A stretch of 60,605 nt of DNA, the filler included. It is 5 parts of 5 records of this genome, joined end to end, with 100 filler letters (N's around TTAATTAATTAA, not from the genome) between each part and the next. Parts side by side here need not be neighbours in the genome. Positions count along the whole stretch, not along the records: positions 23,646 to 46,230 come from SRR31156797_17439; 4 more parts are not named here. One strand, 5' to 3'. Of this stretch, positions 5,602 to 46,131 are shown one piece after another (position 1 is the stretch's first letter; every line of letters begins with the position of its first letter). Both the position numbers and the translations under genes were made by a program. Below the pieces are notes generated by a model that saw nothing but the letters and a program-made list of their open reading frames with translations, did not search any database and was not told where the DNA came from.

Positions 5602-8600
5602 ATGAAAAAATCAAAAATATTTTTAAAAACAATGTTTATCCTCTCTAATATTATCCTTATATATAGTATCGCTATTTATTTTGTAATACTTCCTAGGATT
5701 AATCAAGATATCCAAACCCTTGAAGAACAAAAAGCAAAAGAGATTCTTAATAAAATAGAAACTTTGACTAATAATGTTTACAAAGATCTTGAAAGCTATA
5801 AAAAGCTTACTCTACAAAAACATAAAGATGAACTTAGACACCTTACAGATACAGTGTGGTCGATTATTCAGCTTAAATATGACCAATCAAAACCTGAAAA
5901 CATTGGAAATATCTTAAAGAAAAGTGCCGATGAATTTAAATCAAATATGTTGAAATTTTATAATGAAAATAAAGATCATATGACAAAAGAGGAGTTAAAA
6001 AAAGCTATTATAAACTACGTGAATCTTCATAGACACAATAACAATTCAGGATACTTTTTTATCCTCAAAGATACAAAAGTGATCTTACAACCCATAAAGC
6101 CATCTTTAAATGGAAAAGATCTTAGAAACTTAAAAGATAAAAATGGAGTTTATTTTATTAGAGAGTTTGCAAAAATATCAAAAGATATAGGTGCTGGGAT
6201 ATCAAGCTATAGATGGGTAAATCCTAGTACCAAACGTACTGAAGATAAAATAAGCTATATATTTACTTTTGAACCATTTGATTGGATCATAGGAACAGGT
6301 GAATATTACAATACCCTAAAAGAAAAACTTCAACATGAAGTGATAGATCTAGTAAGTAAACTTCGATATGATGGAAATAACTACTTTTATATCAGTGATT
6401 ACTCTTCCAAATTGATCTCTCATCCTTATTTGCAAGGGAGTGATTTTTCAAATATCACAGATGAGAAAGGAACCCTTATCGTTCCACCTATGGTAGAAGT
6501 AGCTAGAAAACATAAAGAGGGATTTCATAGCTATTGGTGGAAAAAAAACCAACAAGATGATACCCCATATGAAAAACTCACCTTTTCCAAAGATTTTCCA
6601 AACTGGAATATGGTGATAGGTACAGGTGTGTATATAGATGATATAGACAATGAGATGAAAAGAAGAAAAAAAGAGTTGACTTCTCAGTTGCAAGCGATCA
6701 TAAACTCTACAAAAATAGCAAAAAATGGATACATTTTTATCTTTGATAAAAATAAAAAAGTACTTATCTCTCCTAAAAATATATCTTTAGATACTCTACC
6801 AATGCCCTATTTTGATAAACTAATAGAAAAATCAAACTCACCATCACAAGAACTTCTTTTTACATGGAGTAAAGAGAATGATAATAAACACTATGAAGCT
6901 ATATCGTGGGTCAAACATATCCCAAAACTTGATTGGTATGTAGTCTCTTTTAGTTATATGCAAGAGTTTCAGATAGCTTCAAAAAAGATCAGTGATTTTC
7001 TTCTAGTCTTTACTCTTTTGATGCTGATATTTACTACTCTATATGGTTATCTGTTTTTTAAAAAACTTCTTACTCCTATTTGGGAGCTTTCAAAGCTTTC
7101 TCAAAAAGTTATAGAAGGAGACTACTCTATAAGAAGTAAAAAAAGAAAAGGGGATGATGAGATTAGTCTTTTATCTCACTCTTTTAATAAGATGCTTGAT
7201 ACTATAGCAGACCATATCCATCATCTAGATCAAAAAGTACAAGAGAAAACCCAAGACCTTCAAAACTCAAACAATAAGATACATAATCTTCTAAATAATG
7301 CAGGGGAGGGATTTTTGTCTTTTTCATCAAATATGCTTATTGATCCTGAGTATTCTATAGAGTGTGAGAGATTATTAGGAGATACAATAGCTCATAAAGA
7401 TATTAGTGAACTTCTTTTTAATAAAAAAGAGGATCAAGAACTTTTTATCAATATGATACAAGAGATACTAAGTAGACAAACTCCAAAAAGAAAAAGAAAA
7501 GTACTAGTAAATCTTTTACAAAAAGAGTTTTTAATAGGAGAAAAAAATATAGAGATATCCTATAAAGTTTTAGAAAATCATACTATGATGCTGGTCCTTG
7601 ATGATGTCACACAAAAAAAACTTCTCCAAGAAAAGCTTGAAAAAGAAAAAAAGACTTTGAAAATGGTTGTAACAACTGTACAAAACATAGATAACTTTTT
7701 AGAACAAATCGAAGACTACAAAGAGTTTGTAGCCACAAAAAATATCTACTTAGATAAAACAAAAACAGTGCTTTATAATGTATCGGAGCTTTTTAGAAAA
7801 ATACATACTTTCAAAGGAAACTTTGCACAAATAGATATGGTCAATGTTGTCCATGCCCTCCATCAATTTGAATCTACACTCCATGAGATGGTAAAGACAC
7901 CTACCACTACTTTTGAAGAGCTACAAAATGCTTTAGATCAAGATTTTGACAGATGGATTCAAGATGACCTTAATATTCTTATAAATACTTTAGGAGAGGA
8001 GTTTTTACATCAAGATCCAAAATACCACATAAGTGAAAAAGAGATCGAACAACTTGAAGAAAAAGCCAACACCCTTTTAAAAAGTGATCTTAATAAAGAT
8101 AAAGAAAAATCCCAAATACTATTAGAGAGTATCCATCATCTAAAAACAATACCTTTATGTGATCTCCTTGCTATCTATCCTCAAACCTTAGAAAAACTAA
8201 GTCTTCGTTTTAATAAAAGTATCTATCCACTTAAACTTATAAAAGATACAAATATAAGAGTTGATAAAAACTATAAACCTTTTATAAAATCATTGATTCA
8301 TATCTTTAGAAATAGTATTGATCATGGGATTGAGAGTATTGATAGAAGAATGGCTCTTTACAAAGATGAAAAAGGGACTATCTCTTTAACTGCTAAAGTG
8401 GAAAAAAACACTCTTTATCTCACCATTGCTGATGATGGAAGTGGGCTTGATATAGAAAAGCTAAAACAAAAAGCTGTGGAAAAAAACATCTATACAAAAC
8501 AAGAGATAGAAAAATTATCAAAAGAGGAGTGCTTTATGCTTATCTTTGAAAATACCTTAAGTACAAAAGAGAATATCACTGAAATATCAGGTAGAGGTGT

Positions 8601-8712
8601 AGGTATGTCTGCACTCAAAGAAGCCTTAGATGATCTTCATGGTTTAGTATGTATAAAAAGTGAAAAAGATAAAGGAACAACATTTAATTTTGAGATCCCA
8701 TTAACTTTGTAA
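5602..8712 (+). CDS. Membrane sensor kinase: three Cache modules, HAMP, Hpt and CheA-like ATPase, with no CheW domain
   Basis: Repeated Y/F-x-W...W-x(2)-(GTG) Cache ends; HAMP DEISLLSHSFNKM; Hpt FRKIHTFKG; HIFRNSIDHGIE, DDGSG and SGRGVGM. Confidence 0.85.
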   Translation: MKKSKIFLKTMFILSNIILIYSIAIYFVILPRINQDIQTLEEQKAKEILNKIETLTNNVYKDLESYKKLTLQKHKDELRHLTDTVWSIIQLKYDQSKPENIGNILKKSADEFKSNMLKFYNENKDHMTKEELKKAIINYVNLHRHNNNSGYFFILKDTKVILQPIKPSLNGKDLRNLKDKNGVYFIREFAKISKDIGAGISSYRWVNPSTKRTEDKISYIFTFEPFDWIIGTGEYYNTLKEKLQHEVIDLVSKLRYDGNNYFYISDYSSKLISHPYLQGSDFSNITDEKGTLIVPPMVEVARKHKEGFHSYWWKKNQQDDTPYEKLTFSKDFPNWNMVIGTGVYIDDIDNEMKRRKKELTSQLQAIINSTKIAKNGYIFIFDKNKKVLISPKNISLDTLPMPYFDKLIEKSNSPSQELLFTWSKENDNKHYEAISWVKHIPKLDWYVVSFSYMQEFQIASKKISDFLLVFTLLMLIFTTLYGYLFFKKLLTPIWELSKLSQKVIEGDYSIRSKKRKGDDEISLLSHSFNKMLDTIADHIHHLDQKVQEKTQDLQNSNNKIHNLLNNAGEGFLSFSSNMLIDPEYSIECERLLGDTIAHKDISELLFNKKEDQELFINMIQEILSRQTPKRKRKVLVNLLQKEFLIGEKNIEISYKVLENHTMMLVLDDVTQKKLLQEKLEKEKKTLKMVVTTVQNIDNFLEQIEDYKEFVATKNIYLDKTKTVLYNVSELFRKIHTFKGNFAQIDMVNVVHALHQFESTLHEMVKTPTTTFEELQNALDQDFDRWIQDDLNILINTLGEEFLHQDPKYHISEKEIEQLEEKANTLLKSDLNKDKEKSQILLESIHHLKTIPLCDLLAIYPQTLEKLSLRFNKSIYPLKLIKDTNIRVDKNYKPFIKSLIHIFRNSIDHGIESIDRRMALYKDEKGTISLTAKVEKNTLYLTIADDGSGLDIEKLKQKAVEKNIYTKQEIEKLSKEECFMLIFENTLSTKENITEISGRGVGMSALKEALDDLHGLVCIKSEKDKGTTFNFEIPLTL

Positions 8713-12261: not shown

Positions 12262-14040
12262 ATGGAACTAAACTGGAATTTGGATATACTATATACTTCT
12301 TTTGATGATGAAAACTTCTCAAAGGATAAAGAGAGATTTAATACTCTATATAAGGAGTTAGCTGACATATCAAACTCAGAATTTTCTTCAACGGAAAATG
12401 CTCAAAACAAAATTGAAACTTACTTGAAAAAATACACTGAAACTCTGCAAACACTTTTTAAATTACTTTACTTTGGTGAGCTTTCAATGACTGTTGATGT
12501 TAAGAATGCCAAAGCTATTGAAACTATAGAGTATTGCGAAAATAAATTAGTTGATATTACTGAGATTGATATTCAATTCAAAAAATTTATTAAAAAATTA
12601 GATAATTTAGCTACAATAATCGAAAATTCTAATTATCTAAAAGAACTAAAATTTCATTTAAACGAAATTAAAGAGAGTACAAAATATATGCTTAGCGAAA
12701 AAGAGGAAATAGCTATTGCAAAAATGAAAACAACCGGTTCTAAAGCTTGGGAAAAACTACAGGGAACAGTTACTTCAAGCTTAATGATCGAAATTGAAGT
12801 TGACGGAGAAAATAAAAAACTTCCACTCTCTGAAATCAGAAATTTAGCTTATAGAAAAGAAGCTGATATAAGAAAAGAAGCGTTCAAGGCTGAAATAGGT
12901 GCTTACTCACAAATCGAGGACTCTGTTGCATCTTGTCTTAACTCTATCAAAGGTGAAGCCATCACAGAGGCTGAATTAAGAGGTTATGAGTCTATAATGG
13001 AGAAAACATTAAAAGGTTCAAGACTAAAGAAAGAGACTCTGGATGCCATGCTGGAAGCAATGCTAGATAGTTTACCTGATTTTGCTAAATACCTTAAGAA
13101 AAAAGCTGAGTTATTAAATCATGAAAACGGATTACCATTTTACGATCTATTTGCTCCAATGGGAGAAGCAAATATTAGATATACTGAAGAGGAAGCAGCT
13201 GAATTTATCATCTCTTGCTTCAATTCATTTAGTATAAAATTAGGCGGTTTTGCTAAAAAAGCATTTGATAATAACTGGATTGATTTTAGTCCAAAACAAG
13301 GAAAAGTCGGAGGAGCATTCTGTATGAATATGCATCCTATTGGTGAGAGTAGAATTTTATCTAACTTCACTGGATCATTTAATGATCTAAGTACTCTTGC
13401 ACACGAGCTTGGACATGCGTATCACGGAGAATGTCTGTTGGAAGAGGATTACCTAAACAGTGACTATACTATGCCTATTGCAGAAACAGCATCAATTTTC
13501 TGCGAAACAATTATTAAAAATGCCGCTCTTGAAAAAGTTTCTAAAGAGGAAGCATTTGCAATACTTGAGCAGGATATCTCAGGGGCAACACAGGTTATCT
13601 GTGATATCTACAGCAGATTTGTTTTCGAAGATGAAGTAATAAAAAGAAGAAAAAATTCATCTTTATCAGTTGATGATCTAAAAGAGATTATGATGGATTC
13701 ACAGAAGAAAGCATATCTTGACGGATTAGATCATGAGAACCTACATCCATATATGTGGGTATGCAAACCTCATTATTATTCTGCTGAAGTTAACTATTAC
13801 AATTTCCCATATGCATTTGGATTACTTTTCTCTAAAGGCTTATACGCTGCTTATTTAAAAGATAAAGAAGCTTTTGTAGCAAAATATGATGAAATGTTAG
13901 CAATTACCGGTAAAAATGAAATAGAAGATGTTGTAACTTTCATGGGACTAGACGTAACAAAAAAAGAGTTCTGGGCAGATTCACTAAATCTAATTAAACA
14001 CGATATTGAGGAATTTATAAAATTATCTGAAGAGTTATAA
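12262..14040 (+). CDS. Oligoendopeptidase F (peptidase M3B)
   Basis: WNLDILY, GKVGGAFC, TLAHELGHAYH, AETAS and YYNFPYAFG motifs. Confidence 0.93.
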   Translation: MELNWNLDILYTSFDDENFSKDKERFNTLYKELADISNSEFSSTENAQNKIETYLKKYTETLQTLFKLLYFGELSMTVDVKNAKAIETIEYCENKLVDITEIDIQFKKFIKKLDNLATIIENSNYLKELKFHLNEIKESTKYMLSEKEEIAIAKMKTTGSKAWEKLQGTVTSSLMIEIEVDGENKKLPLSEIRNLAYRKEADIRKEAFKAEIGAYSQIEDSVASCLNSIKGEAITEAELRGYESIMEKTLKGSRLKKETLDAMLEAMLDSLPDFAKYLKKKAELLNHENGLPFYDLFAPMGEANIRYTEEEAAEFIISCFNSFSIKLGGFAKKAFDNNWIDFSPKQGKVGGAFCMNMHPIGESRILSNFTGSFNDLSTLAHELGHAYHGECLLEEDYLNSDYTMPIAETASIFCETIIKNAALEKVSKEEAFAILEQDISGATQVICDIYSRFVFEDEVIKRRKNSSLSVDDLKEIMMDSQKKAYLDGLDHENLHPYMWVCKPHYYSAEVNYYNFPYAFGLLFSKGLYAAYLKDKEAFVAKYDEMLAITGKNEIEDVVTFMGLDVTKKEFWADSLNLIKHDIEEFIKLSEEL

Positions 14041-41751: not shown

Positions 41752-41877
41752 CTGTTTTCAGAACGCGGTTACAGGCTTGTTGCCAACCGAACATTTTGAC
41801 CCTCACGGGTTAGGTTAAGTTAAAAAATTAATACGATTCTACTGGAATTTATTTTTAAATCAGTTTAAGTATTTCAC

Positions 41878-42645
41878 ATGGCAAAGGAAAAAAGAATACC
41901 AAAGCACAAGGGCGTATACATTCTGCCCAACCTTCTTACCGTGTCGAGCCTGTTTTGTGGGTTCCTCGCGATGAACTGGGTTGTGGAAGGTGCATACGAG
42001 ATGAGTGCTGTCGCCATCCTGGTGAGCTGTCTCTTCGACGGTCTCGACGGAAAGGTGGCCAGGTTGACCGGAACCAGCAGTGAATTCGGCGTACAGCTCG
42101 ATTCCCTCGCTGATGCGGTTGCCTTTGGTGTTACTCCTGCGTTCATGGTTTACCACTGGCAACTTCACCAGTTCGGAAGATTGGGTATGCTGGCAGCCTT
42201 CTTGTTGATGGCTTGCGGTGTACTTAGACTCGCTCGTTTCAATGTTCAGGCTGGAACAACCTCCAAGGCCCATTTCATAGGTCTGCCCATTCCTGCGGCA
42301 GGTTGTACCTTGTCTTCTTTGATTCTGTTTGCCCCTTATATCCCTGAGAATCTCGCACAGAGTGTACTGCCTATGTTCACTCTGGTGCTTGTATATTGCC
42401 TCGCATTTCTGATGGTGAGTACCGTCCGCTATAATTCTTTTAAAGAATTTGGTGTGTTCAAAGCTCATCCCTTCAGTTCCATGGTTACCGTTATTGCGCT
42501 CTTTACCATGGTTGCCTCTCAGCCCAAGTTTTTGGGCTTCGTGATCTTTGCCGGATACATTATTTCCGGTCCTATTTATACTATTTTTATTCTATCCCGC
42601 AGAAGCAATAAGCTACTAGGAAAGTCCTCCAAAGAATTGTCATAA
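41878..42645 (+). CDS. pssA: CDP-diacylglycerol--serine O-phosphatidyltransferase
   Basis: LPNLLT, DGLDGKVAR...FGVQLDSLADAVAFGVTP, LRLARFN and FIGLPIP. Confidence 0.95.
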   Translation: MAKEKRIPKHKGVYILPNLLTVSSLFCGFLAMNWVVEGAYEMSAVAILVSCLFDGLDGKVARLTGTSSEFGVQLDSLADAVAFGVTPAFMVYHWQLHQFGRLGMLAAFLLMACGVLRLARFNVQAGTTSKAHFIGLPIPAAGCTLSSLILFAPYIPENLAQSVLPMFTLVLVYCLAFLMVSTVRYNSFKEFGVFKAHPFSSMVTVIALFTMVASQPKFLGFVIFAGYIISGPIYTIFILSRRSNKLLGKSSKELS

Positions 42646-42804
42646 GCTTTTCGCAAGGTAGTTCTACAACTACACCCAGAATAAGCTTATACGGTACCAA
42701 AATTCTTTAGGGGACGGTAAATTACTAAGTAGTTTAACCTGTTTCACTGTTTTATTCCCCTCTTTTATTATACACTGCAAATATTCTGTACTTGCAGCCT
42801 TTTT
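42592..42804 (+). promoter_or_regulatory. Putative leucine-responsive attenuator using the pssA 3' end as leader
   Basis: Three in-frame CTA codons at 42592, 42613 and 42616. Alternative helices 42624-42638/42701-42715 versus 42709-42718/42746-42761. C/U-rich tract, then a hairpin plus T5 before the leuA RBS. Confidence 0.6.
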
Positions 42805-42818
42805 CTGGAGATAGATAA

Positions 42819-44366
42819 ATGTCTGATAAAGTTTACATTTTCGATACTACATTGCGTGATGGCGAGCAGTCCCCCGGTGCAACTATGAACATGGCCGAGA
42901 AAATCACCATGGCCCGCCAGTTGGAGAAGCTCGGCGTAGACATTATTGAAGCCGGGTTTCCCGCAGCAAGTCAGGGTGATTTTGAAGCCGTATCTGAAAT
43001 TGCTAGGTCTGTAGGAGACATTCAGGTTGCAGGTCTCTGCCGTGCACTGAAAGCGGATATTGACCGCGCTTTTGATGCAGTTAAGCATGCCAAGAACCCC
43101 AGAATCCATACCTTTGTTGCTACTTCTGATATCCACATGAAACACAAGTTCAACAAGGAACCGGATGAAATTCTGGAAATGGCTCGCAAGGCTGTGCGTC
43201 ACGCGGTTTCCCTGACCCCTAACGTTGAATTTTCCGCTGAAGACGCATCCCGTTCCCGCTGGGATTTTCTCGCTCAGGTTGTTGAGGTTGCTATTGCTGA
43301 AGGTGCAACGACCATCAACATTCCTGATACAGTAGGTTATGCTCAGCCTGACGAGTTCGGTAGATTGATCGAATACCTGATCAAAGAAGTTCCCAACAGT
43401 GACAAGGCTATCTTCAGCGTGCATTGTCACAATGATCTCGGATTGGCTTGTGCTAACACTCTGGCTGCTATTAAGGCCGGGGCACGTCAGGCTGAAGTAA
43501 CTCTCTCAGGTATTGGGGAGCGTGCAGGTAACGCTGCTTTGGAAGAAGTTATTATGGCCCTGCATACCCGCAAGGACTACTATGACGTAGAAACTTCCAT
43601 CCTCACCGAAGAGCTGTTCCCCTCCTGCCGCAGATTGGCGACTACCATTGGTCAGCCCATCTCACCATATAAGGCAATTGTAGGTGCTAACGCTTTTGCT
43701 CACGAGTCCGGCATTCATCAGGACGGCATGCTTAAGAATCGTCAGACTTACGAGATCATGACCCCTGAATCCATTGGTAAGAAGGGCACTTCTATTGTTA
43801 TCGGTAAACATTCCGGTAGAAATGCATTGGGCAGCAAGCTCAATGAAATGGGCTACCAGCTGGACGATGAGCAGATTGCACGCGTATTTAGCGCGGTGAA
43901 AGCTCTGGCTGATAAGAAAGAAGAAATTTTTGATGAGGACGTTGAAGCTCTCGTTCTTGAAGAGGCTTACCGTATTCATGACTTGTACCGGGTAAAAGAA
44001 CTCTCTGTCTTTTCCGGTACTGCCGGTGTCTCCCCGCACGCTGCAATCGTGCTGGAAGATTTCAGCAAGGATAAGGAATATCCGCAAACCATTCAGGAAG
44101 TTGGTTTCGGTGACGGTCCCATTAACGCTGTGTTCTCAACTATTAATAAGATGGTCGACAGGACACCTAAACTGGAACTTTATTCCGTAAACGCGGTTAC
44201 CGGCGGAACTGATGCGCAGGGTGCGGTTACGGTTCATATTACTGACAACGGTTTTAAATCAATCGGGCGCGGTTCTGACGAAGACATCATCGTCGCCAGT
44301 GCCAAAGCTTATGTCAACGCTATCAACAGGGTTGAACGCATGAAACAGGAGAAAAATAATGCCTAA
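42819..44366 (+). CDS. leuA: 2-isopropylmalate synthase
   Basis: FDTTLRDGEQSPG, HCHNDLG, GIGERAGN and AHESGIHQDG, plus the C-terminal regulatory domain. Confidence 0.97.
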   Translation: MSDKVYIFDTTLRDGEQSPGATMNMAEKITMARQLEKLGVDIIEAGFPAASQGDFEAVSEIARSVGDIQVAGLCRALKADIDRAFDAVKHAKNPRIHTFVATSDIHMKHKFNKEPDEILEMARKAVRHAVSLTPNVEFSAEDASRSRWDFLAQVVEVAIAEGATTINIPDTVGYAQPDEFGRLIEYLIKEVPNSDKAIFSVHCHNDLGLACANTLAAIKAGARQAEVTLSGIGERAGNAALEEVIMALHTRKDYYDVETSILTEELFPSCRRLATTIGQPISPYKAIVGANAFAHESGIHQDGMLKNRQTYEIMTPESIGKKGTSIVIGKHSGRNALGSKLNEMGYQLDDEQIARVFSAVKALADKKEEIFDEDVEALVLEEAYRIHDLYRVKELSVFSGTAGVSPHAAIVLEDFSKDKEYPQTIQEVGFGDGPINAVFSTINKMVDRTPKLELYSVNAVTGGTDAQGAVTVHITDNGFKSIGRGSDEDIIVASAKAYVNAINRVERMKQEKNNA

Positions 44367-45618
44367 AACTTTAGCTGAGAAAATTTTACAGGCTCATACC
44401 AACGAAACAGTGAAAGAGCCGGGTCAGATTGTTCGCTGCAATGTTTCCATGGTGCTGGCCAACGACATTACCGCTCCCCTTGCTATTAAATCATTCAGGG
44501 CCATGGGCGCGGATCAGGTCTTCGACAAGGACAAAGTTGCTCTTGTTTGTGATCACTTCACCCCAAACAAGGACATTGATTCTGCAGAGCAGGTCAAGGT
44601 TGTCCGCGAATTTGCCCATGAAAAGAACATCACCCATTATTATGAAGGCGGCGAAGTAGGCGTCGAGCACGCATTGCTGCCCGAGCTGGGTCTTGTCGGT
44701 CCTGCCGATATCGTAATCGGTGCCGACTCCCATACCTGTACTTATGGCGGCCTCGGCGCATTTGCCACTGGAATGGGCTCCACCGATATTGCAGGCGGTA
44801 TGGCTCTCGGTGAAACCTGGTTCAAGGTTCCCCCGACCATCAAAGTCGAAATTGAAGGTACTCCCGGCAAGTTTGTGGGCGCTAAGGATTACATCCTCAA
44901 CCTTATCGGCACCATTGGTGTTTCCGGTGCGCTGTACAAAGCTCTTGAGTTCAGCGGTTCTGTTGTGGACGATCTCTCTATCGAAGGTCGTATGACCATT
45001 GCCAACATGGCAATTGAAGCCGGCGGTAAGGTTGGTCTGTTCCCGGTTGACGCTAAGACTCTTGAATACTGTAAGGCCGCAGGCCGTACCGGTGACGTGG
45101 AAATGCGAGCTGATGAAGGCGCAAATTACGAGCGTGTGGTTAAGATCGATGTAACCGGTATGAAGCCTCAGATTGCTTGTCCGCATCTGCCCGATAACGT
45201 CAAGCCTGTTGACGAAGTAAAGGACATGAGAATTCATCAGGCTGTAATCGGTTCCTGCACCAACGGTCGTATCGAAGACCTGCGCGAAGCTGCTGCCATT
45301 TTGAAAGGTCGCAAGGCTGATAAGAACGTGCGTCTGATCGTACTGCCCGCAACTCCGAATATCTGGAAGCAGGCTCTGCGCGAAGGTCTCATTGAAACCT
45401 TCATGGAATCAGGAGCCATCGTAGGACCCGCAACCTGCGGTCCCTGTCTCGGCGGTCACATGGGTATCCTCGCGGGTGGTGAAAAAGCAATTGCCACCAC
45501 CAACCGTAACTTCAAAGGCCGCATGGGTAGCCTCGAGAGTGAAGTTTTCCTTTCCAGCCCTGCTGTAGCAGCAGCGTCTGCAATCACCGGTATCATCACT
45601 GACCCCGAAGCCTTATAA
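44359..45618 (+). CDS. leuC: 3-isopropylmalate dehydratase large subunit (short LeuC/HacA type)
   Basis: GADSHTCTYG, IGSCTNGR, CGPCLG and NRNFKGRMG. Confidence 0.95.
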   Translation: MPKTLAEKILQAHTNETVKEPGQIVRCNVSMVLANDITAPLAIKSFRAMGADQVFDKDKVALVCDHFTPNKDIDSAEQVKVVREFAHEKNITHYYEGGEVGVEHALLPELGLVGPADIVIGADSHTCTYGGLGAFATGMGSTDIAGGMALGETWFKVPPTIKVEIEGTPGKFVGAKDYILNLIGTIGVSGALYKALEFSGSVVDDLSIEGRMTIANMAIEAGGKVGLFPVDAKTLEYCKAAGRTGDVEMRADEGANYERVVKIDVTGMKPQIACPHLPDNVKPVDEVKDMRIHQAVIGSCTNGRIEDLREAAAILKGRKADKNVRLIVLPATPNIWKQALREGLIETFMESGAIVGPATCGPCLGGHMGILAGGEKAIATTNRNFKGRMGSLESEVFLSSPAVAAASAITGIITDPEAL

Positions 45619-45636: not shown

Positions 45637-46131
45637 ATGTCTATCAAAGGAACAGCACACAGAGTCGGGGCGCATATCGATACTGATGCCATCATCCCGG
45701 CCCGTTTTCTGGTTACTACCGATCCTGTTGAACTCGGTGCCAACTGCATGGAAGGTCTTGAAGAAGGCTGGATTAAGCGTGTTAAAAAGAATGATATCAT
45801 GGTTGCCGATGAGAATTTCGGTTGCGGTTCTTCCCGTGAACATGCTCCTATCTCACTGCTCGGTGCCGGGATTCCGGTTGTTGTAGCGAAAAGTTTTGCT
45901 CGCATTTTTTATCGTAATGGTTTCAACATGGGGCTCATTCTTCTCGAAGTTGGTGATGATTTCGAGAAACTCGGTGATGGCGATCAGCTTGAAGTTGATG
46001 CCGAAAAGGGTGAAATCAAGAACGTAACCACTGGCGAAACCATCACTTGCGCTCCGGTTCCCCCATTCATGAAAGGCATCCTCGATTGCGGTGGACTGGT
46101 CGAATACGTGAAAGATCGTCTTTCTAAATAA
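45637..46131 (+). CDS. leuD: 3-isopropylmalate dehydratase small subunit
   Basis: [23 protein letters not shown] and SFARIFYRN. Confidence 0.95.

Follow-up and report, generated by a model that had tools for sequence, protein, structure and literature searches.

We analysed the junction between pssA and the leucine biosynthetic genes leuA, leuC, and leuD in a 60,605-nucleotide (nt) stretch of DNA, called the window here, which consists of five parts of five records of one genome joined end to end; the junction lies in the part that comes from SRR31156797_17439. The last codons of pssA and the spacer that follows them had been singled out in an earlier note, made from the sequence alone, as a leucine attenuator for leuACD. 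All features described below are on the plus strand. The pssA open reading frame (ORF; 41878–42645, 255 codons, encoding CDP-diacylglycerol--serine O-phosphatidyltransferase) is a CDP-alcohol phosphatidyltransferase by Pfam (PF01066) and scores 138.8 bits against NCBIfam TIGR00473 (cut-off 107). It is followed by leuA (42819–44366), leuC (44359–45618), and leuD (45637–46131), each assigned by Pfam and NCBIfam, so that the names given earlier to all four genes stand. For leuA, the matches are to NF002086 (772 bits vs a cut-off of 532) and TIGR00973, and annotation as a citramalate synthase was rejected because that model reached 206.7 bits against a cut-off of 450; judged by these profiles, leuA is a true 2-isopropylmalate synthase. 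The closest relatives of the locus are Maridesulfovibrio genomes, with pssA 99% identical. A GGAGA ribosome-binding site (42807–42811) precedes the leuA ATG at 42819, and the only small ORF in the window's pssA–leuA spacer has eight codons, none of them for leucine and none CTA, in agreement with the earlier statement that no separate leader ORF is evident there. At the gathering score, no Rfam family (Leu_leader among them) matched the window, and relaxing the threshold to E values up to 10 yielded one noise match, to a microRNA model.

Three of the 34 leucine codons of pssA are CTA, and all three fall among the final 17 sense codons, as the earlier note had counted them: the first at 42592–42594 (codon 239, the 17th sense codon from the end) and a tandem pair, the proposed stall site, at 42613–42618 (codons 246–247, positions –10 and –9 from the stop). 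CTA is the rarest leucine codon over the 35 long ORFs of the window (108/1528, 7.1%) and is absent from the window's leuA (0/31 leucine codons) and leuC (0/30). Thus, three candidate control codons stand directly before a biosynthetic operon, as in a leader-peptide attenuator, with the difference that they belong to the 255-codon pssA rather than to a separate short leader ORF.

Six nt past the tandem codons begins a long hairpin that spans the pssA stop codon (TAA, 42643–42645). Its outer helix pairs segment 1 (GTCCTCCAAAGAATT, 42624–42638) with segment 2 (AATTCTTTAGGGGAC, 42701–42715), with a duplex energy of –14.9 kcal/mol; its inner part (42642–42690) consists of the extension ATAAGCTT/AAGCTTAT and the cap GTAGTT/AACTAC. 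Every one of these elements, as described earlier, is present in the minimum free energy (MFE) fold. The whole hairpin (42624–42715) folds at –30.1 kcal/mol (z –4.58; 0 of 200 shuffles fold as well). A ribosome stalled at CTA CTA would partly cover segment 1, so that in the folding model the window has a protector helix whose 5′ strand would lie under the stalled ribosome, as expected of an attenuator.

The earlier note had predicted that the CTA codons would be conserved only where leuA follows pssA. To test this, we assembled three batches of pssA loci. The first comprised the 80 best among 362 relatives in the genome collection, the second 40 more distant loci from an order-wide search (which found pssA in 296 of 301 genomes), and the third 17 short stretches picked for diversity near the window. 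Two loci of the third batch were left out because of frame detection and three exact duplicates were removed, giving 133 unique Desulfovibrionales loci, in which CTA was scored over the last 25 pssA codons. We found that wherever leuA starts 90–220 nt after the pssA stop the tail contains CTA (105/105 loci), among loci whose pssA identity ranges between 99% and about 56% and whose GC content ranges between 0.42 and 0.69. The proportions were 0/2 for loci with a 74-nt spacer, 5/16 for spacers longer than 220 nt, and 4/10 where the start of leuA was not located. Six of these last ten have 1.7–3 kb of downstream sequence with no leuA, and none of the six has CTA; of the four that do carry it, two are on contigs that end soon after pssA, one has a broken leuA match, and one (L080) actually has leuA 135 nt downstream. 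The prediction was thus borne out in all 105 adjacent loci and in the six without leuA. A raw two-by-two test of adjacency against CTA gives a Fisher p of 8e-9, a value that ignores relatedness.

Codon counts in the 91 adjacent loci among the first 121 indicate that the enrichment concerns the codon itself. Of the 394 CTN codons in pssA tails, 212 are CTA, compared with 3 of 2566 in the pssA body and 2 of 2158 leucine codons in leuA (59 loci). Codons ending in A were not enriched in tails for proline (2/157), valine (1/40), threonine (3/89), alanine (2/27), or glycine (16/126), nor was ATA among isoleucine codons (3/151). Serine TCA was modestly raised (40/313 in tails vs 47/928 in the body), and arginine CGA clearly so (54/217 vs 11/637), most of these CGA codons directly following the key CTA; the CGA enrichment could be structural, through pairing with a UCG before the stop, or could reflect a second slow codon. 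The window itself has GGA, not CGA, after CTA. CTA occurs only at positions –19 to –9 from the stop (0/64 at –20 to –25), accounting for 70 of 71 leucine codons at –9, 26 of 43 at –10, and 84 of 137 at –15 to –19, the positions homologous to the first CTA of the window. Clades differ in where they place it, with one to five CTA codons per tail at varying leucine positions. A pattern that is specific to CTA and shifts in position fits selection on the codon rather than on a fixed nucleotide motif.

Several loci serve as natural controls. In L022, the tail peptide KLLRESQK is kept with its leucines spelled CTG CTG, and in L029 the related KLQRDSQK uses CTT; neither has leuA in the roughly 3 kb downstream. 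L092 and L093 retain an SLLRDSSQK tail written with CTG CTC, and their spacer has shrunk to 74 nt, so that the sensor appears to have been deleted in both. These two are related genomes that have lost most of the spacer. At the level of sequence, we regard it as demonstrated that selection acts on CTA as a codon in the pssA tail and that this is linked to a downstream leuA.

The long-spacer loci show where the codons go when pssA lacks them. Each of the 11 long-spacer loci without CTA in the pssA tail has a small ORF before leuA that contains between one and four CTA codons. These ORFs end 138–192 nt before leuA, a distance that matches the fused form. For six of the 11 (L025–L028, L033, and L035), a block-by-block alignment with the fused tails of the sister clade covers both the C-terminal peptide of the small ORF (LRESQ, LRESQKDPS, and similar endings) and the RNA after it; in L076, the likeness to the fused tails of a different clade is confined to the peptide at the end of the small ORF. 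By alignment, then, the tail and spacer RNA are shown to be homologous to free-standing leaders, in peptide at seven loci and in RNA at six of those. L027 looks like a duplication of the tail module, with pssA still ending in KLLRDSQK without CTA and a separate ORF carrying the CTA codons. Because CTA is absent from pssA where a separate ORF has it, CTA tracks the ORF directly before the spacer RNA and leuA, not pssA as such. Four loci with spacers of 295–321 nt (L047, L048, L032, and L102) keep CTA in the pssA tail; L032 and L102 also have a second small ORF in the spacer with a CGA-CTA pair, and L047 and L048 have a CGA-CTA pair in the spacer. These four may be tandem sensors or intermediates between fused and free forms.

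We propose that the 3′ end of pssA would encode a leucine leader peptide joined in frame to a complete enzyme. As ribosomes near the end of pssA, they would read rare CUA codons 9–17 codons before the stop, directly upstream of segment 1, whose partner, segment 2, is in the pssA–leuA spacer. When charged tRNA-Leu for CUA is scarce, a ribosome would stall and cover segment 1, segment 2 would be released, and the released segment 2 would alter the fate of the transcript into leuACD, most likely by reducing termination in the spacer. Taken as a whole, a fused leucine leader in which stalling at CUA acts on the leuACD transcript is probably the right explanation, and the identification of the pssA tail as an in-frame fused leu leader peptide, which we judge jointly with it, is probable to the same degree. 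The sensor half is well supported; the effector half, together with the stalling, the direction of the response, and termination as the controlled step, is what we infer. The earlier proposal that the pssA tail serves as a leucine leader for leuACD fares accordingly in its two parts: the CTA sensor holds, in 105 of 105 adjacent loci and through its free-standing homologues, whereas the specific effector, in which segment 2 pairs with a downstream segment 3 in a putative Rho utilization (rut) tract, finds no support in our computations.

We compared this arrangement with known systems. In the enterobacterial leu operon, the leuL leader ORF stands by itself: it has about 28 codons and a promoter of its own, and protector, antiterminator, and terminator structures with a U-run come after it. 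Like it, the Desulfovibrionales arrangement has rare CUA codons that are translated just before leuA, a helix right after the control codons, and, presumably, stalling as the readout when Leu-tRNA is scarce; the differences are that the leader here would consist of the last codons of an enzyme gene 255 codons long, that we found no antiterminator, and that Rfam has no match. The free-standing leu leaders found in this work, on which we encountered no publication, share the CTA codons and the 138–192-nt distance to leuA in all 11 cases, and they differ from the fused form in having their own start codon and upstream promoter-like sequence, with a different pssA tail that lacks CTA. In the Streptomyces bldA/TTA system, tRNA availability acts on a gene's own translation. 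That system resembles ours in using a rare leucine codon within full-length genes of a high-GC genome as a regulatory device, but it does not act on a downstream operon. In tnaC-tnaA and mgtL-mgtA, whose leaders are separate small ORFs, the position of the ribosome on a short translated stretch decides the action of Rho downstream. By analogy, control of this kind would explain the lack of a canonical terminator and antiterminator here.

To follow the helix in close relatives, we used 22 Maridesulfovibrio-type sequences (L001–L010 and L121–L132). Helix 1:2 is conserved, being paired in 92.5% of cells over these 22, and the sequence that it encloses has been replaced at least three times; the inner hairpin is accordingly clade-variable, with other inserts in relatives. 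The stretch GGACGGTAA is invariant. At the junction of segment 2 with the following GGTAA, the GGACG at 42712–42716 is invariant in 22/22 sequences and the GGTAA itself (42716–42720) is kept in 21/22 (L005 has GTTAA), a conservation that exceeds what pairing with segment 1 needs. A second clade follows the same helix logic in other letters, GUCCCAG with CUGGGAC, and one of its sequences carries a matching double change. In several other clades, the helix is local, running from the key CUA, or from just behind it, on the 5′ side to the stop codon on the 3′ side. A recurring design, seen in L075, L079, L098, and L099 as well as in several fused clades, is a hairpin that has the last CUA in its 5′ arm and the stop codon in its 3′ arm.

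To examine the output step, we folded single sequences of each clade and clade alignments while blocking, one at a time, the stall site, the footprint at the stop codon, and the arms of the terminator. Directly after segment 2, the window has a weak AU-rich hairpin (42716–42739, –4.9 kcal/mol) followed by a U-rich tract (the two together spanning 42716–42756), and when segment 2 is free this hairpin lengthens to –11.1 kcal/mol and is followed by UUUUAUUC. A scan of the window spacer found no intrinsic terminator, and a lenient scan returned that same –11.1 kcal/mol hairpin with its tract. Clear terminator-like sites occur at few loci (L012, L078, L095, L031, and L039). No antiterminator that excludes a terminator was found: masked folding keeps the hairpin after segment 2 in every clade tried. 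A classical antiterminator was not supported, as no alternative to the downstream hairpin was conserved among the masked folds. Termination of a Rho-dependent or other non-canonical kind would be more likely than a classical intrinsic terminator.

Several observations count against a fused leucine leader and have to be set beside the evidence above. For a phylogeny-aware test, we made a pssA tree from which the tail columns were excluded; it implies at least 14 changes of adjacency and 9 of CTA presence. Among five well-supported independent pairs, two to three go in the expected direction and none in the opposite one, an underpowered comparison with a sign test p of 0.25. The retention of CTA in the pssA tail at five of the 16 long-spacer loci departs from a strict link to close spacing. 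No pair of helix 1:2 changed on both sides in the 22 close relatives, and column shuffles match the alignment in 145 of 500 cases, so that the compensatory changes anticipated by the earlier note did not appear; this covariation test has little power because segment 1 is coding and almost invariant. In some clades, the key CUA and the stop codon are paired through the A of the former and the U of the latter, and part of the CTA conservation could thus be structural. Over the 105 adjacent loci, the 12 nt after the stall codon are paired just slightly more (0.70) than control sites in the pssA body (0.61). Masking the stall site never removes the hairpin that follows segment 2 and in the window lengthens it, which is the wrong sign of response if that hairpin is an intrinsic terminator. 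Even with lenient criteria, no more than 49 of 91 spacers have a terminator-like site, and such sites are almost missing from the Solidesulfovibrio-type group. A promoter-like site in the window spacer, within the interval (42646–42818) in which the earlier note would have counted a dominant leuA promoter against its idea, could feed leuA independently. In favor of the leader, a metatranscriptome contig from a relative of about 89% identity (two runs of one study) extends from roughly 110 nt upstream of pssA through leuA into leuC. It is compatible with read-through from pssA into leuA, a weak hint, and does not prove a single pssA–leuA transcript, as such contigs show no starts, ends, or levels. 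The metatranscriptome contigs hold only small shares of the region's words, run X1 gave no coverage, and run X5 covers only part of pssA.

One specific form of the proposed mechanism is the effector described in the earlier note, which is a sub-case of the fused leader: with segment 1 masked, segment 2 would pair with segment 3 and hide a Rho loading tract, allowing read-through, and in leucine excess helix 1:2 would form and Rho would terminate transcription. We consider it unlikely. The G-poor, C/U-rich tract that would serve as segment 3 and putative rut (42738–42766, with TCCCCT at 42756–42761) has the composition claimed for it (T16 C9 G2 A2), and pairing of segment 2 is energetically possible (–11.4 kcal/mol vs 42740–42775); with the stall site masked, the MFE fold places segment 2 on 42737–42749. 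This mechanism also has the right sign of response, unlike an intrinsic terminator, and features favorable to it are found elsewhere: in the sub-clade of L125 and L127, a strong alternative partner copies segment 1 (–16.7 kcal/mol, z –3.9), and the 105 loci generally have G-poor tracts close behind the stop and close ahead of the ribosome-binding site. Against this, the 2:3 pairing does no better than chance in 18 of 22 relatives (z below –1.5 in 4/22) and gives a z of –1.2 in the window relative to composition-matched shuffles, and the TCCCCT partner is confined to the closest clade. The tract measures about 30–40 nt, which is short for a rut, and a promoter-like site shares it.

That promoter-like site (TTCACT-17-TATTAT, 42743–42771, 9 of 12 matches, a consensus match only) is the starting point for a different reading, in which the region is an ordinary gene boundary: the hairpin would be the 3′ end or terminator of pssA, leuA would have its own promoter, and CTA would be kept for a reason other than leucine, such as RNA pairing, a DNA-binding site, or a programmed pause for the folding or membrane insertion of PssA. 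A conserved TTGCCA-N17-TAnnnT block, promoter-like and seen by eye in one clade, agrees with it, as does the pairing of the key CUA with the stop-codon region in some clades; the enrichment of CGA after CTA (54/217) would suit a structural or pausing constraint, and the missing covariation and the nonsignificant phylogeny-aware test also count in its favor. What makes an ordinary boundary improbable, more so than the 2:3 effector, is the behavior of the codons. CTA sits at differing leucine positions, up to five per tail, regardless of local structure, and tails with the same peptide and no downstream leuA use CTG. Where the CTA codons have moved to a separate ORF before leuA they are gone from pssA, which rules out a role in PssA folding. 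Promoter-like sites, for their part, occur in 15 of 105 spacers over the order, against 8.5 expected.

Least probable of all, and in our view very much so, is an erm-type translational attenuation in which the CUA stall frees the leuA ribosome-binding site on a pssA–leuA transcript: a hairpin just ahead of that site is present in 20 of 20 close relatives, and the free-state MFE fold of L007 pairs UCUCC with GGAGA, but with the stall site masked the predicted accessibility of the ribosome-binding site increases by more than 0.1 at 4 of the 105 loci and decreases at 12, and in none of the 20 close relatives does any spacer segment outdo shuffles in pairing with it. Translational unmasking was rejected on these two tests. 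In the window, the hairpin in question is CTGCAA…TTGCAG (42775–42797, –5.5 kcal/mol), which together with CCTTTTT precedes the GGAGA, where the earlier note had placed them; the T-run is absent in several relatives (e.g. L001, L002, and L004). Since per-sequence folds recover the hairpin in all 20 relatives with differing arm sequences, its 5′ arm must be transcribed.

A wider version of the fused leucine leader would make pssA an attenuator leader throughout the order, with several moves between fused and free forms, an output outside the textbook scheme (possibly based on Rho or on RNA processing), and read-through from a phospholipid gene tied to leucine; we lean toward it, by a little more than an even judgment would allow. 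If the leader is real, it would account for leucine control in a large and environmentally important group of sulfate reducers, and it would mean that leader peptides can fuse to and split from neighboring genes. Searches for attenuators usually look for short ORFs in 5′ leaders and would miss a sensor placed at the very end of an annotated enzyme gene. The codon-bias test used here, for rare cognate codons at the 3′ end of a gene upstream of a biosynthetic operon, would then be usable genome-wide, and the lack of a recognizable antiterminator makes the locus a candidate for a non-classical output mechanism. A search of full-text literature turned up no account of a pssA–leuA attenuator, nor of any leader fused with the gene before it. 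By term search, PMC545781 does not mention leuA, leucine, pssA, or a leader peptide, and PMC10102598 does not mention leuA or pssA. A published parallel comes from comparative genomics of high-GC Actinobacteria, where, according to PMC1262725, leaders with leucine codons have been predicted upstream of leuA, as they would be here.

Two further observations concern the surroundings of the locus. The RNA contigs of the relative end about 110 nt before the pssA start in two runs, which corresponds to 41769–41877 of the window; this end is a weak hint of where the pssA transcript starts. In the window as a whole, CTA use is far higher in the ORFs of the first ~25 kb (1–26000) than around pssA and leuA, for example 16 of 61 leucine codons in the ORF at 12262–14040 and 16 of 119 in that at 5602–8712, which suggests that this part of the window is DNA of other composition or origin.

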